A DNA stretch of 64,000 bases, taken from positions 5,195 through 69,194 of the forward strand of contig CAVPRZ010000011.1 in the NCBI GenBank assembly GCA_963708065.1, in the 5' to 3' direction. The first letter of the stretch is position 1. The number at the start of each line of letters is the position of its first letter. The notes beneath the pieces are model-generated. The model saw nothing but the letters and a program-made list of their open reading frames with translations. It did not search any database and was not told where the DNA came from. A program made the translations under genes and the position numbers. Source of the DNA: an uncultured Chloroflexia bacterium (lineage in GTDB: Bacteria; Chloroflexota; Limnocylindria; Limnocylindrales; CSP1-4). Below, one piece after another: positions 1,344 to 46,232 of this stretch.

Positions 1344-4244
1344 TCAGCCGGTATTGCGGAGTCCCGCCGCGATGCCGTTGATCGAGAGCTGGACGAGACG
1401 GAGCACCTCCGGTCGGCTCGGATCGTCGGGCGGCAGCGCCCGGAGCCGGGCGAGCAACCGGACCTGGAGCTCGGACAGTGAGTCGACGTACGGGTTGCGC
1501 AGCTCGATCGAGCGTTGGAGGATCGGGAACCCGTCGAGCAGATGGTCCCGTCCGGTCACCCTGAGCAGGAGCCGGACGGTCCGCTCGTGCTCGGCCTCGA
1601 TCCGCTCCCAGATCCGTCCGGCGGACGGGCCCCTGGCCAGCGCGGCGTACGTCCGGGCGACGCCGATGTCCGCCTTGGCGAGGGTCATCTCGGCGTTGTC
1701 GAGGATCGCCTCGAACAGCGGCCACGACCGGTACAGCTCGGCGAGGGCGTCGAGCCCGGCGTCGCCATGGCTCGACCGGTACGCCTCGAGGGCGGACCCG
1801 AGACCGAACCAGCCGGGCAGGTTGAGCCGTGACTGCGACCAGGCGAAGCCCCACGGGATGGCCCGCAGCGAGACGAGCGGCGGCGGTGGCTCGGCGACCG
1901 GAATACGTTCGGCCGGGGGCTCCGCCGCTCGCCCGTCGGCCACGCGCGGCCGGTCGCGAGCCGAGCCGGAGGGCCGACAGCTCGACGATCGGGGTGGCGT
2001 CGCGGAAGAACGCCGCGAACTCCGGGTCCTCCCAGACGAGCGCCCGGTAGGCCGCTTCCAGACCTGGGCCAGCTCGTCGATCGCCGCCGCGCCTGCCTGC
2101 CCGGCCCCGGCCACTCGCGCGTCGTGCTCCGCCGTGGAAGCCAGCACGACCGCCGCCGTGAGCTGCTCGAGCTGGCGCCGGGCGATGGCCGGGTTGGCGT
2201 AGTTCGCGGCGATCACCTCGCCCTGCTCGGTCATCCGCAACCGGCCGTCGATCGAGCCGGGCGCCTGGGCCAGGATCGCCCGGTTGGTCGGGCCGCCGCC
2301 GCGACCGATCGCCCCGCCCCGACCGTGGAACAGGGTCAGCTCGAGGCCGTGCCGGCGGGCCGACTCGACGAGCGCCGCCTGGGCCCGGTAGAGGAGCCGG
2401 TTGGCGGCCAGGAACCCGGACTCCTTGTTCGAGTCGGAGTAGCCGAGCATCACCTCCTGGCGATCGCCCCGGGCGAGGAGGTGCCCGCGGTAGGTCGGGT
2501 CGGCGATGAGCGCGTCGACGATCGCCGCGCAGCCCTCGAGGGCGTCGGCCGACTCGAACAGCGGCACGACGTCGAGGACCGGGACCGCCGGCGCGAACCC
2601 GCCCGTCGCGGCCGCCGGCGGGTCGGCGGCGCCGGCCAGCCCGGCCAGCTCGAGGACGGCCAGGACGTCGCGGCCGCGCGGGTGAAGCTGATGACGTAGC
2701 GGCCGGCGGCCGCCGGGCCGAACCGGGCCTGGGCGTCGGCGATCGCCCGGAACGTCGCGAGGACCTCGGCCGCGGTCACCCCGGGCGCCCCGGCAGCTCC
2801 GTTCTCGAGGTCGCCCCGGCGGATGGCCTCGAGCGCCGCCTCGTGGACCTCGCTGTGCTGACGGACCTCGAGCCCGGCCAGGTGGAACCCGAACGTCTCG
2901 ACCTGCCAGCGGAAGTCCTGGACCTCGCCCCAGGCCACCCGCCCGAGACGGTCGGCGACGAGCGCGGCGGCGATCTCGTCGAGCTCGCGCAGGAGCTCCG
3001 CCGGATCCGTGTAGCGGCCGCTCGACGGGACGCCGGCGGTCGCGGTCAGCGCGGCGCGGGTCCGGCGCAGCCGCTCGGCGATCGCCCCGAAGCGCTGCCG
3101 GTACGGCTCGTCGGGGAAGCGCCGGCGGAGCTGACGCATGGTCTCGGGGAGATCGTCGTCGTCGGCGACGAGACGCCGGGCGAGCGGCGGCGCGAGCCGC
3201 GTCCGACGCGACGGTCGCGGCGACCGTCTGCATCAGCCGGGTGGCGACCGCCTCGTAGCCGTGGATCACGTGGTCGGCGTGGATCCGGAGGACGTGGCCG
3301 GTCGTCTCGGCGGTGACGGCGGGGTTGCCATCGCGGTCGCCGCCGATCCAGCTGCCCGAGCCGCAGGAACGCCGGGACGAGCGGTGGCCGGGTCCCGGTC
3401 CGCTCGGCGTCGCCGACCGGCGGATCGGACGCGGCCAGCCGCCCGGCCCGGCCGAGCGCGCGCCGGCGCTCGGCCGCGGCCAGCGGATCGAGCGCACCGT
3501 CGACCGCCCGGTAGAGCCGCGGGACGACGGTGAACAGCGTCTCGTCGAAGTAGGTCATCGCCGTCCGGACCTCGTCGAGCGGGGTCGGCGCCACCGAGCG
3601 GAGGTCGGCGGTCCGCCACAGGAGGCTGATCTCCTCGCGCAGGCGTCGCCGGATGTCGCGGTCCTCGTCGGGCGTCAGGCGCGGATCGTCGAGCCGCTCG
3701 ACGAGCCGGTGGCAGCGGCGGAGCGCGACGAGCAGCGTCCGCCGGCGGGCCTCGGTCGGATGGGCGGTCAGGACCGGGGCGATCGACAGGCGGCCGATCG
3801 AGCTCGACGATCTCGTCGAGCCCGCGGCCGGTCCGCCAGATCCGCCGGACCGCCTCGGCGACCGAGTCGTCGAGGATCCCGCCGCGGGCCGCCCGCTCGC
3901 GCCGGCGCGAGGGTCCGGACCCGGTGCCGCTCCTCGGCCAGGTTGACCAGCTGGAAGTAGAGGCCGAACGAGCGGATGAGCGCCTCGGCTCGCGGCAGGT
4001 CGAGGCCGTCGAGCTCGGCCGACAGGCGCGCCCGCTCGACGGGGTCCTCGGCCCGGCGGAGGGCGATCGTCCGGCGCCGGACCCGCTCGACGAGCTCGAG
4101 CAGGTCGAGGCCCTCCTGCTCGACGATGACCTGGCCGAGCAGCGAGCCGAGGAGCCTGACCTCGCGCGCGAGCGGGTCGCGGGCACCGGCCGTCCCGATC
4201 CCCCGCGGCTCGCGGCGGACGGCCGGGTTCGGGCGGGCGGGCAT
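1344..4244 (-). pseudogene. ppc: Phosphoenolpyruvate carboxylase, reading frame broken many times
   Basis: PEPC segments lie in different minus-strand frames. The N-terminus ([24 protein letters not shown]) is in ORF 3768..4424. [16 protein letters not shown] is in 3046..3594. [33 protein letters not shown] and the C-terminal GLRNTG are in 1344..3497. The mid part is in 2450..3139. Confidence 0.85.
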
Positions 4245-4290: not shown

Positions 4291-7200
4291 TCAGGAGAGT
4301 GTAGGGACCGCGGCAGCCCCGGCCGAGCGGGTCGTGGCGGGAACCCCGCGTTCGCGCGGCGATCCGGAGCGGCACCGGGACCCGCGCGCCGGGTTCCTCG
4401 GCCGCCGGACACGATCCCGGACACGGCCGCCGGCGGCTCGACGAGCCAGACGTCGTCGGGCCGCGGGCCGCCGCCGACCGCAAGGCGCTCGGCCAGCTCC
4501 GACCCGGCCGCGGCATGGGCCGCGACCAGGCGGGCGAGCTCGGCGGCCCGCTCGGCGCCGTCGGCCCGGTCGCGGAGGACCGCCGACAGCCGGGTCGCGC
4601 GCGACGCTCGCCCCGGACAGGGCGGGCGCCGACCGGCCCGGTCGGGTCGAGGAGGTAGGCCCGCCCGCCGGTCATCCCGGCCCCGAAGTTCGGCCCGATC
4701 GGACCGAGGACCACGACGGTCCCGCCGGTCATGTACTCGCAGCCGTGGGCGCCGAGCCCCTCGACGACCGCCTCGGCGCCGCTGTTCCGGACCGCGAACC
4801 GCATCCCGGCCCGGCCGACGACGTGGAGCCGGCCGGCCGTCGCGCCGAAGAGGCAGACGTTCCCGGCGGCCGTCGAGGCCGACGGATCGGCGACGACCTC
4901 GGGCTCCGGCCGGACGACGACGGTCCCACCGGACAGGCCCTTGGCCAGGTAGTCGTTGGCCTGCCCGACGAGCGTCAGCTCGACGCCGTCGACGAGGAAC
5001 GCGCCGAAGCTCTGGCCGGCGGCGCCACGCAGCGCGAGCCGGATCGGGCCATGGGCGGGCCGGCGGATCTCACCGCGCTCGAGCGCCCCGGACAGCTCGG
5101 CCCCGAACGACCGGTCCGCGGTGCCGATCGCGAGCCGCTCGGACGGAACCGGGTCGCCGTGCCGGAGCGACCGCGACGAGGCCGTGCTCGACGGGCGACG
5201 CGGGCGCCCGCCGGACGGCGTCGGTGGCCCGGAGCCGATCGGCGCGACGGGCGCGGGTCGGCCGGCCAGGTCGCCGCGCCGATGATCGCCGCGAGGTCGG
5301 TCGGGCCATCGCCCGGGCCGGGACCAGGAACCGGCGCGCCTCGCCGACGACCTCGCCGACCGTCCGCGCCCCGATCGCCGCCAGCTCGCGCCGGAGGTCC
5401 TCGGCCACGGCCAGCGCGTACCGCTCGACCTGCTCGGGGGTCCCGCTGAACTTCGCCCGGAGGTCCGGCCGCTGCGTGGCGATCCCGGTCGGGCAGGTGT
5501 CGAGGTGGCACTGGCGGGCCATGTCGCAGCCGAGCGCGACGAGCGCGGCCGTCCCGAACCCGAACTCCTCCGCCCCGAGCAGCGCCGCGACCAGCAGGTC
5601 CCGCCCGACCTGGAGCCCGCCGTCCGTCCGGAGCACGACCCGGTCGCGCAACCCGTTCCGGAGGAGCGTCTGGTGGACCTCGGCCAGACCGAGCTCCCAC
5701 GGCGCCCCGGCGTGCTTGATCGAGCTGAGCGGGCTCGCCCCGGTCCCGCCGGCGTGACCGGCGAGGTGGACGTAGTCGGCGCCGGCCTTGACGACCCCGG
5801 CGGCGATCGTCCCGACGCCCCGGCTCGCCACGAGCTTGACCCCGATCCGGGCGGCCGGGTTGATCGCCCGGAGGTCGGCGATGAGCTGGGCGAGGTCCTC
5901 GATCGAGTAGATGTCGTGGTGCGGCGGCGGGCTGATGAGCGCCTGGCCCGGCTGGGCCCGGCGGAGCGCGGCGATCTCGGCCGTCGCCTTCTTCGCCGGC
6001 AGCTGGCCGCCCTCACCGGGCTTCGAGCCCTGGGCGATCTTGATCTCGAGCTGGTCGGCCCGGGCGAGGTAGGTCGCGGTCACGCCGAAACGGGCCGAGG
6101 CGACCTGCTTGATCCGGGCGTCACGTCGCTCGCCGTCGGCGGCCGGCCGGTACCAGGCCGGGTCCTCGCCGCCCTCGCCGGTGTTCGCCGCGCCGCCGGC
6201 CCGCTGCATCCCGATGGTCACCGCCTGGTGCGCCTCGGGGCTGAGCGCGCCGACGCTCATCGCGCTCGCGACGAACCGTCGGGCGATCGCCCGGGCCGGC
6301 TCGACCTCGTCGAGCGGGACCGGCCGGACGCCGCGCGGGCGCTGGACCCGGAGGCCGTCGCGGACGACGGCAGGATCGGACCGGGCGCGGCCCCGGCCAG
6401 GTCCGCGGACGTCCCGTCGGCCACGGCCTGGAGCGCCTTGACGACCGGCGGCGCGTAGAGGTGGAGCTCGCCGTCGGCGCGGTAGCGGGCCAGCCCGGGG
6501 TCGGCCAGCCGGGTCCCGTCGCCCGCCGCCTCGATCGACCGGGCGGCCTCGCGCCGGCGCAGCGCCGCGCTCGGCCAGGGTCGCGAACCCGACCCGCCCG
6601 GGCCAGGCCGCGGCCGACGGGAAGCAACGCTCGACGACCTCCGGGGCGAGCTCGAGCGTCTCGAACAGCGCGCCGCCGACGTACGAGGCCACGGCCGAGA
6701 TGCCCATCCGGGCGAGCGTCTTGCGCAATCCGGCCTCGAACGCGTCGAGGAGCCGGGCGACGGCCTCGCCGGCTCGAGCGACTCGAGGCCGCGGCCCCCG
6801 GCGAGCTCGGCGGCCAGCTCGAGCGCGAGGCGCGGGTGGACGACGGTCGCGCCCGCCGCGATCGTCATCGCGAGGCCGTGGACGTCGAGGATGTCGGCCG
6901 CGTCGACGAGCAGGTCGGCCCGGCCGCGGAGCCCGGCCGCGGCCGAGGGCGGTGTGGACCGCGCCGACGGCCAGGACGCTCGGGAGCGGGAGCCGGTCGA
7001 GCGAGTGCGGCCCGGTCGGAGATCGACGAGGACCTCGATCGAGCCGCCGTCGACCGCGAGGAGCGCGTCGGTGGCCAGCCGGTCGAGCGCCCGGGCGAGA
7101 CCCTGCCGGACCATCGGCCGGGTCCCAGGTGGCGTCGAGCCGGCGGACCCGCGCGGGCCGACGCGCCCGAGCAGCCCGTCGAGGTCGGCGACCACCGGGC

Positions 7201-8905
7201 GGTCGAGGCGGACGGTCCGGGGCCCGGTCGGGATCCCGCCGAGGAGCGCCGGTCGCCGGCCGAGCTCGACGTGGAGGTCCATCACCGCGCGCTCGCGCTC
7301 GGGGTCGATCGGCGGGTTGGTGACCTGGGCGAACGCCTGGCGGAGGTGGTCGGTGACCGGCCGGTCGATCCGCGCCCGGGCCGGCGTCGGCGTGTCGTCG
7401 CCCATGCTCCAGAGCGGCTCCTTCGCCTCGACGACCATCGTCCGGATGTCGAGCCTGGCCCGCTCGGCGTCGAGCCCGGCGAGGTGGCGGACCGCCGGGG
7501 ACGTGGCCGCTCGGTCCCCGCCGACGGTCGGCCGGCCGCCCGTGGATCGACGCCGCCCGGCCGCCTGCCGGGCGGGACGTCGGCGAACGCGGACCGCGGG
7601 GCATCGGGTCGCCACGAGCGGCGCAGGATCTCGGTCTTCGCCTCGACGTCCTCGAGGATCGCCCCGCGACGCGGGTCGACGAGCAGGATCTCGCCCGGCC
7701 CGAGGCGACCGCGGCGGACCGTCTCCGACGGCTCGATCGGCACCGCGCCGGCCTCCGACGCCGCCGCGACGAGCCGGTCCCGGGTGACCGCGAACGCGAG
7801 CGGCCGCAGGCCGTTCCGGTCGACGAGCGCGCCGACCCGCCGCCCGTCGCCGAAGACGAGCGCCGCCGGGCCGTCCCACGGCGCCAGGAAGCCGGCCGTC
7901 CGGCGGGCGAACGCCCCGGCCAGCGGGTGACCGGTCGAGCGGAGCGCGGCCGCCTCCGGGATGAGCGCGAGGAGCGCGGCCTCGAGGCTCCAGCCGGTCG
8001 CGACGAGCAGCTCGAGCGCCTCGTCGAGCGACAGCGAGTCGGAGCCGTCGGGCGACAGGAGCGGCCCGGCCTCGACGAGCCGGTGCCCGGCCGAGCCCGG
8101 GGCGCCGAGCGGATCGCCGCGTCCGGCCGTGGACCTGCTCGCGGTTCGTCCGGATCGTGTTGATCTCGCCGTTGTGGGCGATCGACCGGAACGGCTGGGC
8201 GAGCCGCCACTCGGGGTGGGTGTTCGTCGCGTAGCGCTGGTGGAAGATCGCGTGGCTGAGCGGGAGGTCCGCGGCGAGGTCGGGATAGAGCTCCGCGAGC
8301 CGCTCCCCGGCGACGAGGCCCTTGTAGACGACCGACCGGCACGAGGCCGACGGGACGGCGAACCCGGCGAGGGACGGGCCCGACCGCGCGCGCCGCGGTC
8401 TCCATCCGTCGCCGGGCGAGGACGAGGCGGAGCTCGAACCGGGCGTCGGACAGCCCGGCGGGCCGCTCGACGACGACCTGGGCGATCGTCCGGCCGGGTC
8501 GCGGCGGCCTCGCTCCCGAGCGCGGCCGGGTCGACCGGGACGGTCCGCCAGCGCGGCGCCGGCAGGCGCTCCTCGGCGAGCGCCGCCTCGACGATCCGCG
8601 CGAGCCACGGCGCCGCCCCGGCGCGCACGCGGCAGGAACAGCGAGACGACACCGGGCCGACCGGCGACACCCGGGGCGATCAGGCCGACGACGCTCGGCT
8701 CGAGCGGCAGCAGGACCCCGGCGCCGTCGCTCGACGCCCCGTCCGCGGCGAACGCGCCACGATGGCCGAGCGAGCCGAGGCCGGCCAGGGCGAGCGGCAG
8801 GACCCGCCGGCGCGATCGCCCGCCCGCGTCGGCGACGAAGCCGACGCCGCAGGCGTCGTGCTCGAAGCGACGGTCGTAGAGCGGATGGGCCTGGCGATCG
8901 GGCAT
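4291..8905 (-). pseudogene. gltB: Glutamate synthase large subunit, reading frame broken many times; 3' end uncertain
   Basis: The start [25 protein letters not shown] carries the Ntn-Cys. Also present are [13 protein letters not shown], the FMN domain [35 protein letters not shown], and the C-terminal beta-helix [11 protein letters not shown]. These are scattered over all three minus frames (ORFs 6257..9019, 7282..8670, 5070..9239, 3266..6016). The last fragment runs in frame into the ppc start with no stop. 4291 is the first stop in an alternative frame. Confidence 0.85.
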
Positions 8906-9096
8906 GACGGCACGGTCCTCTTCGGGTCGGACGGATGCCCACCGTAGGCGCGGAGGCCCGCCGCCGTCCGTCGCGGGACGGGCGCGGGACGGTGAGCGGC
9001 TGGGTTGCGGCCCGGTCACCGTTTCGGTGCGCGGACGCAGCGGCGCGGCTCGGGGCCCGGTTGACCACAGGCGGCCGCGCCGCCACGATCCGATCG

Positions 9097-10403
9097 ATGC
9101 CCGAGCCGACCATCGACCGCACGTCGGAGCGCGCCGCGCGGCGGCTCGCCGAGCTGACGTTCCTCGAGGAGGTCGCCCGCCTGGCCGGCTCGACCCGGAC
9201 GTGGGACGAGCTGATGCGGACCGTCATCGACCGGGCCACCGCGGCCGCCGACGCCGAGGTCTGCTCGGTCTACCTCGTCGACCGGGACGGCTCCGGGGTG
9301 ACCCTCGCCGCCACGAACGGGCTCGACCGCGACCAGATCGGCGTCGCCCGCCTGCCGATGGGGGTCGGGCATCACCGGACGGGCCGCCCAGACCCGCCGA
9401 CCGCAGGTCGAGCCTGAACGTCCGACGCGACCCGCGCTTCGCCTGGCTCCAGGGCCTCGACGAGCCGCGCCTCACCTCGATGTGCTCGGTGCCGCTCATC
9501 TGGAACGACGCGGTCGTCGGCGTGCTCAACGTCCAGACCGTCCGGCGGCGCGAGTTCCGGCGGAGCGACGTGCGCTTCCTCGAGACGCTCGCGACGCTCC
9601 TGGCCGGGATCGTCGAGAAGGGCCGGCTCCAGGCCGAGGCCGAGGCCCAGGTCGACAGCCTCCGGGCGATCGACGAGGCGCGGGCGAGCCTGGTCACCGA
9701 TCGTCACCCACGAGCTGCGGACGCCGCTGGCGGTCGTCCGGGCGAGCCTCGAGCTCATCGGGACGGCCGCCCGCGAGGCCGGGGCCGACGGGACGGCGAC
9801 GCTGGGAGACGGAGGCCCTCCGCCAGGTCGACCGGCTCGACTCGATGGTCGACTCGATCCTGGCCAGCCTGCGCGTCCTGCGCGAGGAGCCGCCGACGCT
9901 CGAGCCGGTCGACGTCGCCGCGGTCGTCGAGACGATCGTCGAGTCGCTCGGGGCGATCCTCCGCCGCCACCGGCTGGGCGCGACGTTCCAGGAGCGCCCG
10001 CTCCTCGCGGTCGGCTCGGCCGACCTGCTCGGCCGGCTCCTCGAGTATCTCCTCGAGAACGCCGCCAAGTACGCCCCGGTCGGCGACCGGATCGAGATCC
10101 TACGGCTGGCGCGACGGCGGACGCGTCCTGCTCGCCATCACCGACGACGGGCCGGGCATCCCGGCCGAGTGGCGGGAGCGGATCTTCGAGCCGTTCGTCC
10201 GCCGCGACGACTCGCCGCGCGGGGCCGGGATCGGGCTGTTCGCGGCCCGCCACCTGGCCCGGGCGATGAACGGCGAGCTGCGGCTCGAGGATCGGCTTCC
10301 GGCGGGCAGCCAGTTCGTGCTCGAGCTGGCCGCCTCGCACGGGCCGGGCGGGCTCGCCGGGGACCGGCGCCTGAGACGGGCCGCGCCGCCGACCGGCGCC
10401 TGA
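9097..10403 (+). pseudogene. GAF-domain sensor histidine kinase (frameshifted)
   Basis: The GAF N-terminus is in ORF 8935..9417 and continues in ORF 8904..10403. By manual translation the H-box VTHELRTPLAVV lies in a third frame at about 9703-9726. The N-box LLENAAKYAP is in ORF 9482..10519. G-boxes DDGPGIP and GAGIGL are in ORF 8904..10403. Confidence 0.8.
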
Positions 10404-10433
10404 AGCCGGCCGACGGGCGAACCCGTCCCGCCG

Positions 10434-11760
10434 CTAGACCTGGTAGGCGGCCTCGCCGTGGACGGCCAGGTCGAGACCCGTCTCTTCCTGCGTCTTCGGG
10501 ACGCGGATCCCGAGGATGACGTCGACGACCTTGACGATGACGAACGTGCCGACGACCGCGTAGGCGATCGTCGCGCCGACGGCGACGAGCTGGGTCAGGA
10601 CCTGGCTGCGGGTTGCCGTCGATGAGGCCCGCTGTAGGCCTCCTGGACGGCGGCCGTGGCGAAGACGCCGGTCGCGATCGCCCCGAACATCCCGCCGACC
10701 CCGTGGACCGCGAACACGTCGAGCGCGTCGTCGACCTTGATCCGGACCTTGAGCAGCGTCGCGCTGTAGCACAGGCCGCCGGCGACGAGGCCGATGACCA
10801 GCGCGCCGCCCACGGTCACGAAGCCGGACGCCGGGGTGATCGCGACCAGTCCGGCGACCGCCCCGCAGGCGGCGCCGACGACGCTGACCTTGCCCTTGTG
10901 GAGGTAGCTCGCGCCGACCCAGGTGATGGTCGCGGCCGCGGCGGCCGTGTTCGTGACCACGAAGGCGCTCGCGGCGAGCCCGCCGGCGGTCAGCGCCGAG
11001 CCGGCGTTGAAGCCGAACCAGCCGAACCACAGGAGACCGGCGCCGAGCACGGTCATCGGCACGTCATGGGGCTCGAAGCCCTCGCCGTTGACGACCCGCC
11101 GGCCGATCAGGATGGCGACGATCAGGGCCGACACGCCCGAGCTGATGTGGACGACGGTGCCGCCCGCGAAGTCGAGCGCGCCGAGCTTGTACAGCCAGCC
11201 GTCGGTCGACCAGACCCAGTGGGCGATCGGCGAGTAGACGAGGATCGACCACAGGATCGTGAACAGGACGAACGCGCCGAACCGCTTGCGCTCGGCGAAG
11301 GCGCCGGTGATGAGCGCCGGGGTGATCGCGGCGAACATCAGCTGGAAGCCGGCGAACAGGAGGAACGGGATCGTCACGGCGTAGACCGTGCTCGGCGCCT
11401 GGCCGACGCCGTTGAAGAACGACGATAGTCGAGGTTGCCGATCAGCCCGAGGCCGCCGACGTCGGGGCCGAACGCGAGGCTGAACCCGACGATCACCCAG
11501 ACGACGCTGACGATCGCCAGCCCGAAGAAGCTGTGCATGATCGTCGACAGCACGTTCTTGCGCCGGACGAGCCCGCCGTAGAACAGGGCCAGCCCGGGCA
11601 GCATGATCATGACCAGGGCGGTCGAGGCCAGCATCCAGGCCGTGTCGCCGGAGTTGATCTCGGTGGTGCCGTCCGCTGCGGCGACGGTTCCCGGCAGGAT
11701 GGCCAGGAGCGCCGTCCCGATCCCGGCGGCCGCGAGCCCGTGTCTGATCCTCGTCCGCAT
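10434..11760 (-). pseudogene. amt: Ammonium transporter (two frame changes)
   Basis: Three consecutive minus ORFs (11374..11760, 10595..11377, 10434..11030) carry N-terminal, middle and C-terminal Amt segments. Motifs include [38 protein letters not shown] and HGVGGMFG. Confidence 0.85.
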
Positions 11761-11838
11761 CGCTCGATCCTCGCCTCCCGGGCAGCCCTCGCGTCCGACG
11801 TTCGTCAGGCTGGAGCCGAGGGACCGCCCTGCCTGAGG

Positions 11839-12691
11839 CTAGGCCCGGGCGCTTGCCAGTTCGAGGCTGAGCGGGTGGCGCGTCGGGGTCGCCGCGGTTA
11901 CGGCTCGGCGGCCGTCCGGCGTCGGTTCGGATTCGGCCGGCGCGACCGTTCCGTCACCGACCGCGTCCTCGAGCCGGTAGCCGATCCCCCGGACCGGGAT
12001 GGGAACCGGGGCGCCGGCGGCGATGAGCTTCGAACGGAGGCGGGCCATGTGCGGCTTGAGCCAGAGCGGATCGGGATCGTGGACGCCGGGCCAGGCGTAG
12101 GCCAGCAGGTCGCGCCGCTCGACGACCTCGCCGAGACGGTCGGCCAGCCGCGCCACGAGGCGGAACTCGGTCACGGTCAGCGCGATCGGACGCCCCTGCC
12201 AGCTGACCTCGTGGCGGCTCCGGTCGACGAGCCAGCCGTCGCGGGCGGGCGCCCGACGGTGGCGACGGACGACCGACCGGGTCCGGGCGAGCAGCTCGGC
12301 GGCGCGGAACGGCTTGCGGACGTAGTCGTCTGCACCGGCGTCGAGCAGCTCGACGGTCACGCCGAGGTCGCTCTCGCCGGACACCACGATGATCGGGGTG
12401 TCGCCGGCGGCGCGGATCCGGCGGCAGACGTCGGCCCCGTCGACACCGGGCATCGCCAGGTCGAGCAGGACGAGGTCCGGATGCTCGTCCTCGAAGCGAC
12501 GGATGCGCCTCGCGGCCGTCGTAGGCGGCGATGATCCGGTGCCCGGCCCCGCCGAGGATCGCCCCGATGACGCCGACCATGGCCGGCTCGTCGTCGGCCA
12601 CGAGGACCTTGAGCGACTCGCCGCGAGCACTGTCGCCGTCGGCGTTGGGATCGCTCGCGGGCGTGTCGTGGGTCGTCGCGTGACTGCTCAC
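11839..12691 (-). pseudogene. OmpR-family response regulator (one frame change in the receiver domain)
   Basis: The receiver start KVLVADDEP is in ORF 11954..12886. DLVLLDLAMPGVDG and the winged helix (TVTEFRLV..GIGYRL) are in ORF 11839..12630. A GTG start is inferred at 12691. Confidence 0.75.
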
Positions 12692-12926: not shown

Positions 12927-13448
12927 ATGGCTGGCGACAAGAGCGGCCGGACGAGCGCCGGCATCCTCCTCTACCGCCTCGGACCGGCCGGGCTCGAGGT
13001 CCTGCTCGCGCACCCCGGTGGCCCGTTCCACGCCCGCAAGGACGAGGGCAACTGGACGATCCCCAAGGGCGAGGTCGAGCCGGGCGAGGCGCTCCTCGAC
13101 GTCGCCCGGCGCGAGTTCCTCGAGGAGACCGGCCATCCCGTTCCCGGCGGCGACCCGATCGAGCTCGGGGAGATCCGCCAGAAGTCGGGCAAGCTGGTCC
13201 TCGGCTGGGCGGTCGAGGGTGACCTCGACCCGGCGGCGGCGCACAGCAACACCTACGAGATGGAGTGGCCTCCGCGCTCCGGGCTCCGGGCGTCGTTCCC
13301 CGAGATCGACCGGGTGGCCTGGTTCGACCCCGACGAGGCGCGGCGCAGGATCAAGCAGGCCCAGGCGCCGTTCCTCGACCGGCTCGAGGCCGCGCTGCCG
13401 ACGGGCTCAGCCGAGGCTCAGCCGGCGTCGGCAACACTCCCCGGCTGA
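12927..13448 (+). CDS. NUDIX hydrolase
   Basis: Nudix box GEVEPGEALLDVARREFLEETG. ATG at 12927 within ORF 12702..13448. The 3' end overlaps the convergent carrier gene by 31 nt. Confidence 0.75.
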   Translation: MAGDKSGRTSAGILLYRLGPAGLEVLLAHPGGPFHARKDEGNWTIPKGEVEPGEALLDVARREFLEETGHPVPGGDPIELGEIRQKSGKLVLGWAVEGDLDPAAAHSNTYEMEWPPRSGLRASFPEIDRVAWFDPDEARRRIKQAQAPFLDRLEAALPTGSAEAQPASATLPG

Positions 13449-13735
13449 CGCCGGGTGCCGTCCGCGCCGCCGGCCATCGCCGGGAGGAGCAGGACCGTGT
13501 CGCGCTCGGCGACCGGCGTGTCGAGCGCCTGGAGATGGCGGACGTCGGTGTCGTTGAGGAAGACGTTGACGAACCGGTTCAGGTCGCCGTCGCCGGCGAG
13601 GAGCTGCGGGGCGAGCCCCGGGTAGGCGGCGACGAGCCCGCCGATCACCTCGCGGACGGTCGCCCCCGGGACCTCGACCTGCTTCTGGCCGCCGGTCGAG
13701 GTGCGGAGCACGGGCGGGATCCGGACGAGGCTCAT
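13418..13735 (-). CDS. MoaD/ThiS-family sulfur-carrier-like protein with an internal diglycine and a 15-aa tail
   Basis: It is 105 aa with a beta-grasp-like sequence (VRIPPVLR..VNVFLNDTDV..DTVLLLPAMAGG), followed by ADGTRRQPGSVADAG. Its ATG overlaps the upstream thrC-like stop (ATGA). Confidence 0.7.
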   Translation of the reverse strand: MSLVRIPPVLRTSTGGQKQVEVPGATVREVIGGLVAAYPGLAPQLLAGDGDLNRFVNVFLNDTDVRHLQALDTPVAERDTVLLLPAMAGGADGTRRQPGSVADAG

Positions 13736-15060
13736 GACTCGAGCCACGATTCGAATGCCGCGAACCGCGGCGGGATGATCGGGGCCAGGCCCGGTTGACC
13801 GGCCCGGGCCGGCGCCTGGGCCGTGTCGTCGAGCCCGAACCGGACCGCGTCGGGGGTCTTGAGCCCGTTCCCGGTCAGGAGCGCCACGACCTCGTCGCCG
13901 TCCCGGATGACGCCTCGCTGCCGGGCCGCCTCGGCAGCCGCGAGGGTCACGCCCCCGGCCGTCTCGGGGTAGATCCCCTCGAGCGTGGCGACCCGCCGGA
14001 TCGCTTCGGCCGTGGCACTGTCGGGGATCGCCTCGATCGAGCCGCCGGTCGCCCGCGCCAGCTCGACCGAGTAGCGCCCGTCGGCCGGGTTGCCGATCGC
14101 GAGCGACCGCACGATCGTGTCGGGGGTCCGGACCGGTTCGATGTCGGAGGCGCCGCTGGCCCAGGCCGTCGCGACGGGGGCGCAGCCGGCCGCCTGGCCG
14201 CCGACGAAACGGACCGGCGTCCGCTCGATGAGCCCGACCGCGGCGAGCTCGTCGAAGCCCTTGGCGAGCTTGGTGAACATGGCGCCGGACGCGATCGGGG
14301 CGACGACCACGTCGGGCAGCCGCCAGCCGAGCGCCTCGGCGATCTCGAACGCGAGCGTCTTGCTGCCCTCGGCGTAGTACGGCCGGAGGTTGACGTTGAC
14401 GAAGCCCCAGCCCAGCTCGTCGGCGACCTCGAGGCAGAGGCGGTTGACGTCGTCGTAGGTCCCGTCGACCGGAACGACCGTCGCTCCGTAGGCGAGCGCG
14501 TGGTCGATCTTGGCCGGCTCGAGGTCGGCCGGGATGAACACGTAGGCCGGCAGCCCGACCGCCGCCGCTGCGGCCGCGGTCGCTCCGGCCAGGTTGCCCG
14601 TCGACGCGCAGGCGAGGGCCTCGAGCCCGAACTCGAGGGCGTGCGTCGCCGCGATCGCGACCGCCCGGTCCTTGAACGACAGGGTCGGGTTGCGGGTGTC
14701 GTCCTTGATCCACAGCCGGTCGATCCCGAGCGTCGGGCCGACGCGGTCGGCGGCGATGAGCGGCGTCGAGCCCACCTTGAGCCCGCGCTTCGGCGGCTCC
14801 ACGACAGGGAGGAGCTCGAGGTAGCGCCAGATGCCCGGCGGGCGGGCGGCGATGGTGGCCCGGTCGACGAGCCGGCCGACGAGCTCGAGGTCGTAGGCCA
14901 CCTCGAGCGGCCCGAAGCAGGCCGGGCAGACGTAGTTCGGCCCGGATACCTCCGCCCGGCCGCAGTTGCGGCAGCGCAGGCCGACGATCCGCTCGGCGGG
15001 CATGACCGGGCGGCGACCCTTGACGGTCGTCGGTGTTCCGGTCAGCAGCTCGGTCGTCAT
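13732..15060 (-). CDS. Threonine synthase-like PLP enzyme with an N-terminal zinc ribbon (possible MetM-type homocysteine synthase)
   Basis: 442 aa. Motifs: CRNCG..CPAC ribbon, PLP-lysine motif NPTLSFKDR, and ASTGN. It sits directly downstream of a SAM-I riboswitch. Confidence 0.8.
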   Translation of the reverse strand: MTTELLTGTPTTVKGRRPVMPAERIVGLRCRNCGRAEVSGPNYVCPACFGPLEVAYDLELVGRLVDRATIAARPPGIWRYLELLPVVEPPKRGLKVGSTPLIAADRVGPTLGIDRLWIKDDTRNPTLSFKDRAVAIAATHALEFGLEALACASTGNLAGATAAAAAAVGLPAYVFIPADLEPAKIDHALAYGATVVPVDGTYDDVNRLCLEVADELGWGFVNVNLRPYYAEGSKTLAFEIAEALGWRLPDVVVAPIASGAMFTKLAKGFDELAAVGLIERTPVRFVGGQAAGCAPVATAWASGASDIEPVRTPDTIVRSLAIGNPADGRYSVELARATGGSIEAIPDSATAEAIRRVATLEGIYPETAGGVTLAAAEAARQRGVIRDGDEVVALLTGNGLKTPDAVRFGLDDTAQAPARAGQPGLAPIIPPRFAAFESWLES

Positions 15061-15128
15061 CGTCGGTCCCTCTCCACGGTCGCCACGGGCGACCGGTCGC
15101 TCGTCCTTGCGTCTGTAGCTTGGGGACC

Positions 15129-15162
15129 GGAAAACGAGAAGACCCTTCGCTGCGGAAGGGTC
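15129..15162 (-). terminator. Intrinsic terminator of the riboswitch expression platform
   Basis: GACCCUUC-CGCAGC-GAAGGGUC hairpin followed by UUCUCGUUUUCC, about 70 nt upstream of the thrC-like ATG. Confidence 0.7.
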
Positions 15163-15276
15163 TCGGGGGATTCCCTTATCTCGCAGGCGGACCTGCCCGG
15201 ATTTGGCACCTTGCCGGATCGCCGGTAGGTTGTCGTGGCATCGACGGGCCGGTCCCTCCGCCACTCTTGATAAGAG
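15129..15276 (-). promoter_or_regulatory. SAM-I (S-box) riboswitch: aptamer 15173..15276 plus terminator expression platform
   Basis: Minus-strand RNA reads CUCUUAUCAAGAGUGGCGGAGGGACCGGCCCGUCGAUGCCACGACAACC...GGUGCCAAAUCCGGGCAG...GAGAUAAGGG. This matches the conserved S-box blocks and P1 pairing. Confidence 0.85.
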
Positions 15277-15353
15277 CTCTTCAGTTGTCCGCGGATCGTA
15301 CGGGCGACTGGCGCAGTTCGTCAACCGCCGCCAGGATGTCAAGCGACCCGACT

Positions 15354-18300
15354 CAGCGGCGCTCCGTGAGCCCCAGCCGGATCGCCACCGCCGCGGCCTC
15401 GACACGGCCGGAGACGCCGAGCTTCGACAGGATGTTGCCGACGTGGACGCCGACCGTCTTCTGGCTGATGAACAGGCGCTCGCCGATCTCGCGGTTCGTC
15501 CGGCCCGCGGACGAGCAGCAGGAGCACCTCGCGCTCGCGCGGGCTGAGCCCGAACGCGGCGGCCTTCGGGCGGGCCGGGCCGATGAACTCGCGGGCGAGA
15601 CCCGGGCCGAGTGAGGCGCCGTCGCCGTCGGACCGGCCGCCCACCGCGACCGCCACGGGGACGCGGGACCGGCTCGGCCGTGGCGATGACCGCGCCCTCC
15701 TCCGGCTCCGGGATCGGGATGAGCGCCCGCCGGGCGAGCTCCTCGAGCTCGCGCAGGAGCGGGCGTGCGCCGAGCTCGCGGGCGATCCGGACCGCCTCGA
15801 GGAGCGGCTTCCGCCCGGCGGCTCGACCCGGTCGGCCCTCGCCGGCGCCGAGGGCCGCCTCGGCCTGGTGCCAGCGCGCCCGGGCCACCTGGTACGGGAT
15901 CCCGAGCGCCTCCCAGCGCTGGGCCAGCGCATCCCAGGTCGAGGGGTCGTCGTGGCCATCGATCCGGGCATGGAACGCCTTGGCCGTCCCGAGGTAGGCG
16001 TCCGCCTCCCGCCGGGAGCCGAACGTGCGTGGCACGCCGGCCGCGGCGATCGCCTCCTTGGCCCGGGTCAGCACCGACCGGGCGCGATCCCGGGCAGCGG
16101 CCAGCGCCGCGAGGTCACGCCGCTCCCGGGCGTCGGCGACGACGGCTGCGTCCGTCTCGAGGAACGTCGCGGCCATCCGGGCGATGAGCACCCAGTCCTC
16201 GGTGTCGCGGATCGGCGCCCAGCCGAGATCGACCGAGCGGCGGGCATCTTCGACGTCGCCGCGCCAGAGCGCGAACGACGCCGCGGCGAGGTAGGCAGGC
16301 GCGGAGGCCTGCGCGTCGGGAACCGTCTCGAGCTCCAGGAGGAGCCGCCCGAGCAAGCGACCCGCCTGCTCGCCAGCCTTCGTCTCCACCTCGACGACGG
16401 CGAGGTTCGTCGCGGCCACGACGAACATCACCCCGACCGGGCTCCACTCGAGCGCGGTGTCGACGAGGACCCGCGCCTCCGCCCACCGGCCGAGCAGGAT
16501 CAGGGACTCGGAGCCGTTGCCCCGGAGGAAGTTGCCGTACGTGGCCTCCTGGCCGGCAGCGCGGGCATCCTCGACCCCGGCCATCGAGACCTCGAGCGCC
16601 TCGCGCCGACGGCCGAGCACGTCGAGCGCCGTCACCAGGTTGGCCGTCGCCCGGAAGCTGTCGCCGACCCGGCCGAGCTCTTCTGCGATCGCCTTGGCTT
16701 CGCGGAGCAGGGCCACGCCCGTCTCGGGATCGTCGCCCCAGGCACGACTGATGCCGAGCGTGCAGATCGCGTGGCCCTCTGCCGCCCGGGCCGCCGGCCC
16801 GACCGCGCGGGCGACGTCGATCGCCTCGCGGCACAGTCGCTCGGCCTCGCGGAACATCCCCTCGAACATCCGGACCTGGGCCAGCGAGGCGAGGATGAGC
16901 GCACGCTCGCGGGTCGGCTCCGGCGGGATGAGCTCGAGCGCTCGACGATATGCGATGAGCGCGCCGTCGGTGTCGCCGAAGGCACGGCGATAGCGCCCGA
17001 GCCGCTCGTGGAGCAGCGCCACGCTCACCCGGTCGGCGCGCTCGTCGAGTCGAGCGATGGCCGACTCCGCGAAGGCGGCGGCCCGGGTCGGGCGACCGTC
17101 CGCGAACGCGGCGTCCGCGGCCCTGGCGAACAGCTGGGCGGGCGCGTTCGCGTCGGCGCGGCCGGCCCTCGGGATCGATCGGTCGTCCAGCTCCAGCGCC
17201 AGCTCGAGGTGGGCAAGCGCGTCGCCGGGGGAGTCGATGGCCTCGGCGACGGCGGCCGCCTCGATCGCCGCCGTCCGGGCCAGGCCGGGCTCGTGGGCCA
17301 GGAGGTGGTGACGGGCCCGCGACCCGGGTCGCTTCGACAGCCCGGCCGCGAGCGCCGAGTGGTGGCGCCGCCGCTGGCCCGGCAGGAGGTCCGCCTCGAC
17401 CGCCCGGGCGATGAGCTCGTGGCGGAACCCGACGAGAACGTCGGCCGGCAGGGCCGCGGCGTCGCTCGGGCTGATCTCGGCCGGGTCCGAGGTGGTCGAG
17501 GTCGCCGGGCTGACGTCGGCCGTCGGCCGATCCAATGCGATGAACCCGTGGGCGAGCGCCTCGACCAGCCCGACGGCGAGGTCCGGCTCGAGGATCCCGC
17601 GGCCACGACGCGGCGCCCCGCTCGAGCGCGGGGCCGGGCGGTCGGCGTCCCGTTCGAATGCCTCGGAGGCGGCGGCAAGCTCGTCGATCCGAAGCGGCTC
17701 GCCGGCCGGTGCCAGGAGCCGGAGGATGCGCCGGCACTCCGGCGTCCGCTGGGCGAGGCGGGCCATCGCCAGCTCGTCGAGCGACCCGGTGAGGGGGGTC
17801 CCGGCGAGCTCGCGCCGAGCGGCCAGGATCTCCTCCGCGACGAGCGCATTGCCGCGCGATCGCTCCGCCACGAACAGCAGCACCGACGCCGACGGGCGCT
17901 CCCCCTCGATGCCCTCGATGAGCTCGACGAGCTCATCGCGATCGAGCGGCGGGAGGGGCAGGTCGAGCGGCGGCGACGTGCCATCGGCCATCTCCGCGAG
18001 CGCCGCGCGGAGCGGGTGGCTCCGGGTCAGCTGGTCCGGCTGGTAGGTGGCGAGGACGCACAGCCGGCCGGGCCGCGAGACGCGGGCGAGGAACGTGGCC
18101 AGCGATCGGGTGCCGGCGTCGGCGGACTGGAGGTCCTCGAGGGCGAGCACGACGGGCACCTGTTCGCCGATCCCCTGCAGGAGCCCGAGGATCGACTCGA
18201 GCATCCGGCTGTGGCGCATCTCCGGGTCGGTGACGGTCGGCCGGGCCGGGAGCAGCCCGAGCCGGTCGAGACGGCCGGCCGTCCTCGGCAGGAGCTTCGC

Positions 18301-24877: not shown

Positions 24878-24954
24878 TGGTAGGGGAGCCTGGACTCGAA
24901 CCAGGGACCGGCCGTGTATAAGACGGCTGCTCTCACCAACTGAGCTACTCCCCC
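24878..24954 (-). tRNA. tRNA-Ile with anticodon UAU (encoded CCA end)
   Basis: Manual cloverleaf: acceptor GGGGGAG/CTCCCCT (G1-U72), D stem GCTC/GAGC, anticodon stem GCCGT/ACGGC, loop CTTATAC, T arm CCTGG-TTCGAGT-CCAGG, discriminator A, CCA. Confidence 0.85.
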
Positions 24955-28024: not shown

Positions 28025-28433
28025 TCAGGTCAGGAGCGGCCGCAGGAGCTGGCTCTCGACGACCAGGACGAGGTACGCGATCGGGACGGCGGCGAACAGC
28101 CCGAGGGCGGCGCTCCACGAGGCTTCGCGTCCGTCGGCCGCCGGCCCCGGTCGGCTGAGGAACGATGAGGTAGGTGATCAGCGCCCCCGTCGTCACGACG
28201 AGGACGACGAAGCAGGCGACCGCCAGCGCCCGCAGGTCGCCGCCCGGCAGGCTCGCCCCGCGGGTCAGCGCGACGTCGTACGCCAGGTAGCCGAGACCGA
28301 GCACGATCGCCACGACGAGCGGGCTCAGCACGGCCCTGACGACCGGTCGCGGGGCGTTCCGGAACTGGCGCCAGCGGACCTCGAACCAGCCGCGTCGCCG
28401 GACGCCCTCCCGGCCCCGCTCGTCGGCGGTCAT
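28025..28433 (-). pseudogene. Small membrane protein (three TM), one frame change
   Basis: Its ATG overlaps the aminotransferase stop (ATGA). Two TM helices are in frame. The third helix and the stop (SWSAALGLFAAVPIAYLVLVVESQLLRPLLT*) were recovered in another frame by manual translation. Confidence 0.45.
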
Positions 28434-29668
28434 GCCTCCTCGCCGAGCATCGCCAGCATCCGCCGTGGCGGCAGCGTCGCCGGGGTGTGACCCGCGACGA
28501 GCTCGACGGTGGCGGCGAACCGCTCGAGCTCCTCTTCCGTGTTGTAGAACCCGACGCTGATCCGGAGCGCGTCGGTCGGCAGGGTCCGGAAGATCGCGAA
28601 GCAGCGACGGCTGATCTCCTCGAACGCCTCGTCGCTTGTCCAGCCCGCGATCCGGAACGAGATGAGGTTCGCCATCCGCTCGCGCGGGGTGAGGAGCTCG
28701 ACGCCGGGGATCGCGGCGAGGCGCTCGGCGGTCGCCCGGGCGAGCTCGTGTCCGCGCCGGTGGACCCAGTCGAGACCGACGAACATCGACAGCCAGGCCA
28801 GGCTGCGGGCCATGCCGAGCACGACCGGTCGCGAGTAGCCGGAGGTCTCGAAGCGGCGGGCGGCAGCGTGGAGCGTCGCGGCCCCGACGAGGTCGTGGCT
28901 GGCGTACGAGAAGAACCCGGCGAACGTCTGGCGAGCCCGCTCGATCGCCGCCGGGGCGCAGTAGAGCGCCGCGATCCCCTCGGGCCCGAGCAGCCACTTC
29001 TGGGCGGGGATCGCGTAGAAGTCGACGCCGAGCGCTCCGACCTCGACCGGGATCGCCCCGATCGCCTGGGCGCCGTCGACGACGGTCACGGCACCGCGCG
29101 CCCGGGCCAGCTCGGCGATGCGGGCGACCGGCAGCACCGCGCCGGTCGTCCAGCTGACGTGGCTCACCGAGACGAGCTTCGTCCCGGGCACGATGGCCGC
29201 ATCCAGGGCGGCCAGGGTCCGTTCGTCGTCGCCGCCGTCGCCGAGGTCGGTCATGACCAGCTCGATCCCGAGCCGGTCGCGCAGCGTGTACAGCGGGCCA
29301 AGGGCGCCGGCATGCTCGAACCGGGTCGTCACGGCCCGGTCGCCGGGCCGCCAGTCGACGCTCCAGCTGGCGACGTTCAGGGCATCCGTCGTCGAGTGGG
29401 TGAGGGCGATCTCGGCCGGGGCGGCCCGGGCGATCGCGGCGACCGCCGCGCGTGCCTCGTCCATCCGCTCGAGGAGATCGACGAAGTCGTCGAGGCTGGC
29501 CCGGCCGACCGTGAGCTCGCGCTCGGCGAGCTCTGCCATCGCCCGATGGGTCTCGGCCGGGAGCGGCCCGACCGATCCGGCATTGAGGTAGATCCCGGCA
29601 GCCGTGGCCGGGAGCGCCTCGCGGACGGCCGCGAGCCGGTCGCCTTCCGGGAGGAATGGGGTCACCAC
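28430..29668 (-). CDS. Class-V aminotransferase / cysteine desulfurase-like PLP enzyme
   Basis: 412 aa. Motifs HSTTDALN, VSVSHVSWTTG and DGAQAIGAIPV, with the lysine in IPAQKWLLGPEG. Confidence 0.7.
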   Translation of the reverse strand: MVTPFLPEGDRLAAVREALPATAAGIYLNAGSVGPLPAETHRAMAELAERELTVGRASLDDFVDLLERMDEARAAVAAIARAAPAEIALTHSTTDALNVASWSVDWRPGDRAVTTRFEHAGALGPLYTLRDRLGIELVMTDLGDGGDDERTLAALDAAIVPGTKLVSVSHVSWTTGAVLPVARIAELARARGAVTVVDGAQAIGAIPVEVGALGVDFYAIPAQKWLLGPEGIAALYCAPAAIERARQTFAGFFSYASHDLVGAATLHAAARRFETSGYSRPVVLGMARSLAWLSMFVGLDWVHRRGHELARATAERLAAIPGVELLTPRERMANLISFRIAGWTSDEAFEEISRRCFAIFRTLPTDALRISVGFYNTEEELERFAATVELVAGHTPATLPPRRMLAMLGEEA

Positions 29669-29687
29669 GGGTCCGTATCATACGGGC

Positions 29688-44431: not shown

Positions 44432-44812
44432 CTAGTGGGCGCAGCTCCGGGGGCTGCCCGCGTCGTCCGCGGTCCGGAAGCTCGAGCCGCAGCCGCAGGC
44501 GGCGACGGCGTTCGGGTTGTTCACGGTGAAGCCGGCGCCCATCAGCGTGTCGACGTAGTCGATCTCGGCGCCCTTGAGCAGGTCGACGCTCTTGCCGTCG
44601 ACGTACACGGTCACGCCGTTCGCCTGGAGGACGCAATCCTCCTCGGTCGGGGCGTCCTCGATCATCATCCCGTACTTGAAGCCCGAGCAGCCGCCGCTGT
44701 AGACGTAGACCCGCAATCCGACGCTCGGGTTCGTCTCCTCGGCCGTGATCTCGCGGAGCTTCGTGGCCGCAGCGTCGGTCAGGTTCAGGAAGGTCGGCTG
44801 GGTCTCGAGCAT
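44432..44812 (-). CDS. erpA: Iron-sulfur cluster insertion protein (HesB/IscA/ErpA family)
   Basis: GGCSGFKY and the C-terminal CGCGSSF motif. ATG at 44812. Confidence 0.8.
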   Translation of the reverse strand: MLETQPTFLNLTDAAATKLREITAEETNPSVGLRVYVYSGGCSGFKYGMMIEDAPTEEDCVLQANGVTVYVDGKSVDLLKGAEIDYVDTLMGAGFTVNNPNAVAACGCGSSFRTADDAGSPRSCAH

Positions 44813-45002
44813 GCGCTGCGTCCTCCGCACGGGGGCGTTCGGTTGGCGTAGGAGGCCATCGTACGCACCGACCAGAGTTTCGGCAAGCATCACGTCGAAA
44901 TGACGGTCCGGCCGTGGCCCGAAGGTCCCGGCCAGCCCCGACGGCGGTCCCGGATCGGGCCCGGTCCGGACGGTCCGGTGCCATCGAACGGAGACCGGGA
45001 CG

Positions 45003-46232
<1,230 letters not shown>

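Follow-up and report, generated by a model that had tools for sequence, protein, structure and literature searches.

How does a leader of the S-adenosylmethionine (SAM) riboswitch type come to stand before a gene that databases name "threonine synthase"? This question is raised by a locus of an uncultured Chloroflexia bacterium (GenBank assembly GCA_963708065.1, contig CAVPRZ010000011.1), of which we analyzed the forward-strand stretch from position 5,195 to 69,194; these 64,000 nucleotides are referred to as the window, and coordinates are those of the window unless another locus is named. An earlier interpretation, made from the DNA and its translated open reading frames (ORFs) and called the sequence-only reading below, had proposed that a SAM-I riboswitch controls a ThrC-like enzyme and a small sulfur carrier that together form homocysteine. 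All elements that it described proved to be present at the positions given, and its proposal of a MetM/MetO-type route is supported. Judging from profile matches, orthologous loci and residue comparisons, we consider it very likely that the two genes constitute a SAM-repressed operon for the synthesis of homocysteine from O-phosphohomoserine with a protein thiocarboxylate, i.e., a MetM/MetO ortholog in high-GC Chloroflexota of the Limnocylindria type. The parts of this operon are:

15173..15276, minus strand: SAM-I (S-box) aptamer with helices P1-P4, matching RF00162 over the full model.
13732..15060, minus strand: metM-like gene for a ThrC-fold pyridoxal 5'-phosphate (PLP) enzyme of 442 aa, defined by its ORF, profile matches and orthologs.
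13418..13735, minus strand: metO-like gene for a ThiS/MoaD-family carrier of 105 aa, defined by PF02597 and orthologs.

Scanning the whole 64-kb window with the Rfam covariance models (cmscan) revealed a single riboswitch, RF00162 (SAM-I/S-box), on the minus strand. The sequence-only reading had described a canonical SAM-I leader with a closing P1 helix and suggested a check against RF00162; the check bears the description out, with a score of 74.6 bits (gathering score 44.4; E-value 1.2e-15), coverage of model positions 1-108 of 108, and an aligned P1 closing helix formed by CUCUUAUC/GAUAAGGG. A scan of species-representative genomes yielded the best 80 loci, all from Chloroflexota; counts of orthologous loci given below refer to 81 loci, those of leaders to 78 and those of covariation to 38. 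The homologous aptamer lies directly upstream of the enzyme ortholog in 79 of the 81 loci, the two exceptions being cut by contig ends, and this association of riboswitch and gene is far beyond chance. Across the 38 leaders, the aptamer is strongly conserved and its variation follows the S-box fold: compensatory pairs occur in P1 (UA/GC/CG), P2 (CG/UA) and P3 (GC/AU), with both sides changed in 14, 2 and 12 sequences, respectively, while most other pairs are invariant. The comparison shows that a bona fide SAM-I aptamer precedes the metM-metO genes, and this aptamer is predicted to bind SAM.

The enzyme starts with an ATG at 15060, preceded by GGAGAGGGA. It belongs to the fold-type II PLP enzymes (PF00291, 233 bits; TIGR00260, 254 bits), carries an N-terminal zinc ribbon CxxC-x11-CxxC (Cys30, 33, 45, and 48; 14917..14973) and has the Schiff-base lysine Lys130, invariant in the alignment, within an SFKDR motif (14671..14673), in agreement with its earlier description as a zinc-ribbon threonine synthase homolog. 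The score for the thrC model TIGR00260 surpasses the cut-off of 167.1, which explains the database name "threonine synthase" and has no power to separate MetM from ThrC. The closer model NF006050 gives 291.6 bits, under its cut-off of 303, and the cysteate synthase model only 53 bits. A look-up of the exact 442-aa sequence found no record, and the closest homologs of the protein, with up to 88% identity, come from metagenome-assembled genomes (MAGs) of Chloroflexota/Candidatus Limnocylindrales. Compared with the ortholog in locus L001 (441 aa, 87% identity), the ORF runs in a single frame.

Matches in the PDB were canonical ThrCs only, with no MetM structure among them (Aquifex 2zsj, Thermus 1uim, M. 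tuberculosis 2d1f, 6cgq, Arabidopsis 1e5x). These biochemically verified enzymes share 35-39% identity with the window protein, align with it from residue ~75 on and have no zinc ribbon. Canonical ThrCs (2zsj, 1uim, 2d1f, 6cgq) have in common with the window protein the fold, the SFKDR Schiff-base lysine motif and, as predicted for the latter, the substrate O-phosphohomoserine; they differ in lacking the ribbon and an adjacent carrier gene and in a set of conserved residues described below.

As an actinomycete surrogate we used the 11.85-Mb chromosome of Nonomuraea gerenzanensis, which is filed in a plasmid collection. At 11.81 Mb it encodes a homolog that shares 52% identity and the zinc ribbon with the window protein and is flanked by an RF00162 aptamer upstream (68.7 bits) and a 91-aa ThiS-family gene ending AVAGG downstream. 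A separate, ribbon-less thrC is located at 2.50 Mb and is 65% identical to M. tuberculosis ThrC. In a homology search seeded with the riboswitch-linked Nonomuraea paralog, only Streptosporangiales, and no Streptomyces, appeared among the matches listed.

In a neighbour-joining tree, the window protein, 7 Chloroflexota homologs and the riboswitch-linked Nonomuraea paralog form one clade, and the canonical ThrCs, including Nonomuraea's own, form another. The phylogeny against canonical and MetM-type sequences that the sequence-only reading had suggested therefore places the protein outside canonical ThrC, and on the MetM side it was carried out by means of the Nonomuraea surrogate with its 52% identity. 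Comparison of 51 clade members from two phyla with 6 canonical ThrCs revealed 28 positions with group-specific conserved residues. Among them are the replacements T88L, S155N, N157R, R160Y, Q164S, N188S, and W249G (T. thermophilus numbering), which correspond to L157, N224, R226, Y229, S233, S258, and G328 in the window protein. L157, N224, R226, Y229, and S258 are common to 51/51 clade members, whereas T, S, N, R, and N are invariant at these positions in 6/6 canonical ThrCs; the canonical residues T88, S155, N157, R160, and N188 are thus absent from the window protein. Canonical ThrC retains the phosphate of its substrate as catalytic base, and we take T88, S155, R160, and N188 of the T. thermophilus enzyme to be contacts to this phosphate. 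The signature as such is a computed result, and its functional reading is tentative. At least 6 of 8 diagnostic residues are found in ~70 of the best 150 cluster representatives at 50% identity; Micromonosporaceae, Thermoplasmatota, and Euryarchaeota MAGs are among the named carriers of the signature, and in every case the protein goes under the name threonine synthase. Clade and signature support an assignment of the enzyme as MetM-type rather than canonical threonine synthase.

The stop codon of the metM-like gene and the start codon of the metO-like gene overlap in ATGA (13732-13735), consistent with the translational coupling proposed before. That the 105-aa product is a beta-grasp sulfur carrier is likewise corroborated, by a PF02597 match of 49.7 bits over residues 4-90 that ends at PAMAGG. 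The Gly-Gly is not at the C-terminus: the carrier core comprises residues 1-90 of 105, with Gly-Gly at 89-90 (13466..13471), and 15 residues follow. As encoded, the protein offers no C-terminal Gly-Gly for adenylation, which would need proteolysis first. In 75/81 loci the enzyme gene is immediately followed by one for a carrier ortholog, and in 54/81 the ortholog is exactly 90 aa long and ends PAMAGG. For relatives of the carrier, databases give the names "ubiquitin-like small modifier protein 1" or "molybdopterin synthase sulfur carrier subunit"; such names arise because the carrier just reaches the SAMP1 model, its best model in NCBIfam (60.5 bits, cut-off 60). These names, like "threonine synthase" for the enzyme, are probably misleading.

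The full combination of riboswitch, enzyme and carrier is present in about 75/81 of the Chloroflexota (Limnocylindria-type) loci. In locus L084 (10001-17342), the pair is followed by a 668-aa fusion of an S-methyltransferase with methylenetetrahydrofolate reductase (MTHFR; metF-like) and by a 1246-aa cobalamin-dependent metH, all genes being co-directional with stops and starts that overlap or nearly abut. A metF-like fusion and a full-length metH also come after the pair in L026, L038, L041, and L078. The enzymes of this extension, MTHFR fusion and MetH, consume homocysteine, the predicted product of the pair, and in these five loci the extended unit would be a complete SAM-controlled operon leading from O-phosphohomoserine to methionine. 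Four loci (L016, L023, L077, L080) contain the riboswitch and the metM-like gene with no recognisable carrier within several kb downstream; in these, the carrier gene may be situated elsewhere, or the carrier may not be required. The MAG MFD02199.bin.2.130 has two riboswitch-metM-metO copies, on contigs L021 and L022, whose enzymes share 77% and 73% identity with the window protein.

Between aptamer and coding region, and ahead of the aptamer, we found the following candidate elements:

15129..15164, minus strand: terminator-like hairpin (10 bp, 15164..15139) with the tail CUCGUUUUCC, based on folding and a conserved stem.
15156..15177, minus strand: candidate antiterminator, AAGGG (P1 3' strand, 15177..15173) paired with CCCUU (terminator 5' arm, 15160..15156), based on a local fold.
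15295..15324, minus strand: putative sigma-70-like promoter TTGACG-18 nt-TACGAT, separated from the aptamer downstream by 19 nt, by consensus match only.

The hairpin GAGACCCUUC-CGCAGC-GAAGGGUCUU starts 9 nt past P1, has a predicted free energy of -15.8 kcal/mol and is followed by a tail with 5 U, as expected from the terminator hairpin and U-rich tail of the sequence-only reading. A stem GAGACCCUUCC...GGAAGGGUCUU of at least 10 bp with variable loops is present 5-10 nt past the aptamer in 32/78 orthologous leaders, with 2-6 U per 10 nt in their tails; over all leaders the median is 2 U, and more than half of them are without a terminator-type hairpin. The antiterminator fold (-6.6 kcal/mol) can form ahead of the transcription of the terminator 3' arm, and both of its segments are conserved among the leaders with the terminator hairpin. 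From this we infer, with little confidence, an AAGGG/CCCUU antiterminator. A search for promoter-like sites in 13000-15600 found 1 site against 0.0 expected from shuffles, and the core of this TTGACG/TACGAT site is conserved in L001. The S-box regulon of Bacillus and other Gram-positive bacteria controls metI/metC, metE, metK and the like. The window shares with it the aptamer family and a subsequent hairpin with a 5' arm predicted to pair with the P1 3' strand; it differs in that metM-metO is controlled, in a high-GC genome, with a short U-tail and a weak candidate antiterminator.

We propose the following course of events. When SAM is scarce, P1 would be unlocked and AAGGG would pair with the CCCUU of the hairpin 5' arm, so that the polymerase would read through and coupled translation would follow. 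When SAM is plentiful, P1 would be closed, the hairpin would form and transcription would end. MetO would be trimmed to its Gly-Gly by a JAMM/Mec-type peptidase and then adenylated and thiocarboxylated by a MoeZ-type activating enzyme (E1), both encoded outside the window. MetM would use its PLP to eliminate phosphate from O-phosphohomoserine and add the sulfur of the MetO thiocarboxylate at C-gamma, releasing homocysteine, which MetH or MetE would then methylate.

These steps have a precedent. The GapMind preprint (2026) gives an account of the work of Hasebe et al. (2024, Appl Environ Microbiol 90:e01247-24). According to this account, the route from O-phosphohomoserine to homocysteine in Streptomyces albulus employs MetO as sulfur carrier, Mec as hydrolase, MoeZ as ligase, and MetM as a synthase that depends on the MetO thiocarboxylate; the preprint adds that MetM is often misannotated as threonine synthase. 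An upstream SAM riboswitch of S. albulus metM is mentioned in a second citing paper (PMC12172450, mSystems 2025). For a Microcystis homolog that is 51.6% identical to MetM, the same paper (PMC12172450) reports an adjacent metO-like gene and no riboswitch. As far as these citing papers describe it, the S. albulus system agrees with the window in having a ThrC-annotated PLP enzyme, an adjacent ThiS/MoaD-type carrier and an upstream SAM riboswitch, and in the proposed chemistry, by which a carrier thiocarboxylate turns O-phosphohomoserine into homocysteine. It differs in belonging to Actinomycetota instead of Chloroflexota, the nearest actinomycete surrogate showing ~52% identity, and by the deletion-derived 15-aa tail of the window carrier. 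A MoeZ-type E1 and a Mec peptidase are found beside the pair in none of the loci examined here. Since each of the three parts of the window operon, and with them the riboswitch, has its counterpart in the known system, riboswitch control is not a new feature. Only the lineage, Chloroflexota, is new, and the riboswitch-enzyme-carrier layout is already known. The sequence-only reading, which saw a riboswitch-regulated version in another lineage, was thus right about the lineage and mistaken in treating the regulation as novel, as both S. albulus and Nonomuraea possess it.

Several points weigh against a SAM-repressed MetM/MetO operon. Orthology to S. albulus MetM/MetO is inferred by way of the Nonomuraea surrogate, i.e., from 52% identity and a shared clade. 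Neither an E1 (ThiF/MoeB-type), a JAMM peptidase, thrB, nor any other met gene was present among the ~40 window ORFs. The Gly-Gly of the carrier is masked by the deletion-derived tail, and the protein would be active only if trimmed. In the leader, a generic terminator scan performed at chance by itself (1 found, 0.8 expected), and the antiterminator comprises just 5+2 bp at its -6.6 kcal/mol; because it is so short, kinetic control has to be assumed. Many frame breaks in the window point to imperfect local sequence quality. Finally, a cyanobacterial enzyme of the MetM clade, from Microcystis, is reported to have shown threonine synthase and deaminase activity in vitro.

The sequence-only reading had stated that E1, sulfur donor and protease could not be identified here, and for the window this is correct. 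E1, JAMM peptidase, thrB, and met genes were also missing from four annotated neighbourhoods and from the surroundings of a second ThiS gene in L071. All that the search for activation machinery brought up were genes of the rhodanese and cysteine-desulfurase-like kinds, at a distance. In the window these are a class-V aminotransferase resembling the SufS family (28433-29677) and a tandem-rhodanese protein similar to 3-mercaptopyruvate sulfurtransferase (29592-30527), which form a divergently oriented pair ~13-15 kb from the operon and both score below the NCBIfam cut-offs. As candidates only, they could possibly supply the sulfur for carrier thiocarboxylation. An ErpA/IscA-type iron-sulfur protein is encoded at 44435-45115.

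The alternative that survives best leaves the identity of the operon untouched and concerns its control, which might be mainly translational, through sequestration of the Shine-Dalgarno (SD) sequence, or dual, rather than simple transcription termination. We regard this as a real, if rather unlikely, possibility, and it centers on one further element:

15123..15130, minus strand: conserved CCGGUCCC element, based on leader comparison.

CCGGUCCC (15130..15123) is complementary both to GGGACCGG of the aptamer (15256..15249) and to the SD-adjacent GGGACCG (15070..15064), and in minimum-free-energy folds it pairs with the SD region. As CCGGUCC/CGGUCCC, it is found 41-51 nt past the aptamer in 63/78 leaders of any platform type; this fixed distance, kept also where the terminator-type hairpin is missing, favors translational control, as do the frequent lack of that hairpin and the short U-tails. 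The SD-side complement, however, is present in just 10 loci, which include the window and belong to its sub-clade only, and the window falls into the class with the classic S-box layout, in which the 5' arm of the -15.8 kcal/mol hairpin overlaps the P1-complementary segment. SD sequestration was rejected as a general mechanism because the SD-side partner is not conserved (10/78, against 63/78 for the element). CCGGUCCC may represent a second regulatory helix, and a translational layer of control is possible.

It is improbable that the enzyme is the threonine synthase of the cell, or a bifunctional threonine/homocysteine synthase, with a carrier that is incidental or serves a second activity only. 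The passed TIGR00260 cut-off and the uniform database name "threonine synthase" agree with such a role, and the in vitro activities of the Microcystis enzyme lend some weight to the bifunctional version. SAM repression of a sole threonine synthase, on the other hand, would starve the cell of threonine. Moreover, the enzyme has other residues at five positions where canonical ThrCs show no variation, the carrier gene almost always follows (75/81), in some loci together with metF and metH, and Nonomuraea retains a separate canonical thrC. The preference of the sequence-only reading for methionine over threonine is upheld by the same evidence, i.e., the clade, the replaced residues, the five loci with metF and metH, and the separate Nonomuraea thrC.

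The tail of the window carrier raises a question of its own. In the sub-clade nearest to the window, the carrier has 112-135 aa: the Gly-Gly is followed by a linker that varies and is often very rich in Cys, and the protein ends in an invariant C-x-C-P-[GES]-R-xxxx, before which G-T-H-G-G is frequently found (for example GGCACACCACACCCDPVSDTCACPERAPAG). We rejected the idea that the 15 residues of the window are a frameshifted version of this Cys motif, which is missing in all three frames; the tail is a deletion fusion, as seen in the alignment with L090:

13412..13453, minus strand: deletion scar, in which metO continues in frame into the final ~11 codons of a former DUF4395 gene, based on the L090 alignment.

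L090 and the window share 94% nucleotide identity, and their MetM proteins are 96% identical. A segment of about 650 bp in L090 (1893..2542), which holds the tail with the Cys motif and almost the whole DUF4395 gene, is missing from the window, in which 13453..13412 matches 2543..2584 of L090, the end of the DUF4395 ORF. The resulting tail ADGT-RRQPGSVADAG joins the start of the native linker to the last 11 DUF4395 codons, in frame. Judged by this alignment, the tail is a deletion scar and not a native pro-sequence. In this region of the window (13397-13453), the 3' end of metO has come to overlap with a convergent NUDIX ORF.

The deleted part belongs to a recurrent arrangement. DUF4395 (PF14340, 78 bits) is a membrane protein with an invariant G-[YF]-C-L-G-C, encoded ~100 nt downstream of the tailed carrier; tail and DUF4395 loci are L001:11326-12302, L090:1612-2578, L003, L004, L006, L033, L039, L069, and L088-L118. 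Motif and DUF4395 occur together in 7/7 genome contigs with the motif, and among the other loci DUF4395 was seen only as a frameshifted remnant in L058. An independent search of metagenome contigs seeded with DUF4395 gave 27 loci whose upstream DNA extends over ~750 nt or more. In 22 of these 27, DUF4395 comes directly after a tailed metO, usually with metM before metO. The literature searched contained no functional information on DUF4395, and the module of Cys-rich tail and DUF4395 appears undescribed. We tentatively suggest, as an idea that is plausible and still somewhat more likely to fail than to hold, that the window operon is a natural deletion derivative of a metM-tailed metO-DUF4395 unit, which its closest relatives share without exception, and that tail and DUF4395 form an accessory module of thiocarboxylate-dependent homocysteine synthesis. 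Such a module might act, e.g., in sulfur or metal delivery or in controlled carrier maturation. If this is true, the window would show that the module can disappear in a single step that leaves metM and the metO core intact.

Alternatively, the deletion might have crippled the operon in the source genome, the DUF4395 fusion masking the Gly-Gly so that the carrier is not activated and MetM uses free sulfide or is idle. The origin of the tail as a deletion product rather than a conserved pro-sequence fits this scenario, and so do the 54/81 orthologs that end exactly at the Gly-Gly and the lack of a JAMM peptidase in the window. Nevertheless, we consider it quite unlikely, given that both ORFs are intact and in frame, that MetM is 96% identical to that of L090, and that the natural post-Gly-Gly tails of the closest relatives are even longer than that of the window. 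Adenylation needs a free Gly-Gly carboxylate, so that all tailed carriers, including that of the window, must be trimmed by a peptidase that has no gene nearby, and since the closest relatives carry longer tails, the lineage must already have a trimming activity with its cut after the Gly-Gly.

That the pair makes another sulfur compound instead of homocysteine, be it cysteine from O-phosphoserine in the manner of CysM/CysO or a thio-metabolite, is highly improbable: ThiS-family carriers do serve several pathways, the carrier scores best with SAMP1, and some cysteine-related genes are under SAM riboswitches, but the enzyme has the ThrC and not the O-acetylserine sulfhydrylase (CysM) fold, the co-operonic metF and metH of other loci use homocysteine, and the cysteate synthase score is low.

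The proposed MetM/MetO route resembles two other thiocarboxylate systems. In the CysM-CysO-Mec-MoeZ system of Mycobacterium tuberculosis, O-phosphoserine is converted to cysteine, with a rhodanese-domain E1 for the activation of the carrier and a JAMM peptidase for its processing. The logic is that of MetM/MetO, in that the PLP enzyme has an O-phospho amino acid as its substrate and receives the sulfur from a ThiS-like carrier in thiocarboxylate form; the differences are that CysM belongs to the O-acetylserine sulfhydrylase family and not to ThrC, that the substrate is O-phosphoserine and the product cysteine, and that no SAM riboswitch is known to be involved. In the HcyS-HcyD-HcyF-MetY system of Wolinella succinogenes, a JAMM peptidase removes the extra C-terminal residue of the carrier. 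This system also synthesizes homocysteine in a protein-thiocarboxylate-dependent manner, but its sulfur acceptor MetY is an O-acetylhomoserine sulfhydrylase of PLP fold type I with O-acetylhomoserine as substrate.

The frame breaks mentioned above affect conserved neighbors of the operon (4434-12691 and 15356-15691). We counted at least 7 frame changes in GltB and 2-5 each in Amt, a GAF histidine kinase, a LuxR-type regulator, and a response regulator; the large LuxR-type regulator is broken in its GerE domain. These breaks are probably long-read indel errors, since Amt is also split in the syntenic long-read MAG L001, and they call for caution with any ORF end in the window. Elsewhere in the window, a tRNA-Ile with anticodon UAU lies at 24878-24954 (minus strand; 69.2 bits in Rfam). 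A 93-nt "tRNA-Gly" called by ARAGORN at 1946-2038 (minus strand), inside the phosphoenolpyruvate carboxylase ORF and without Rfam support, is probably spurious.

The locus extends the MetM/MetO route, together with its control by a SAM riboswitch, to an abundant uncultured lineage of soil and freshwater Chloroflexota, and it leaves the knowledge of the pathway itself unchanged. The part that could lead somewhere new is the tail and DUF4395 module of the sister lineages. For re-annotation, useful discriminators are a zinc ribbon at the N-terminus and the motifs STGNLAG, N-x-R-P-x-Y, and (I/V)ASG in the protein, as well as a neighboring ThiS-family gene and a SAM-I leader in the DNA, and very many "threonine synthase" entries are probably homocysteine synthases. 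This matters for metabolic reconstruction, as genomes that apparently have no metA, metX, metY, or metB may not be methionine auxotrophs.

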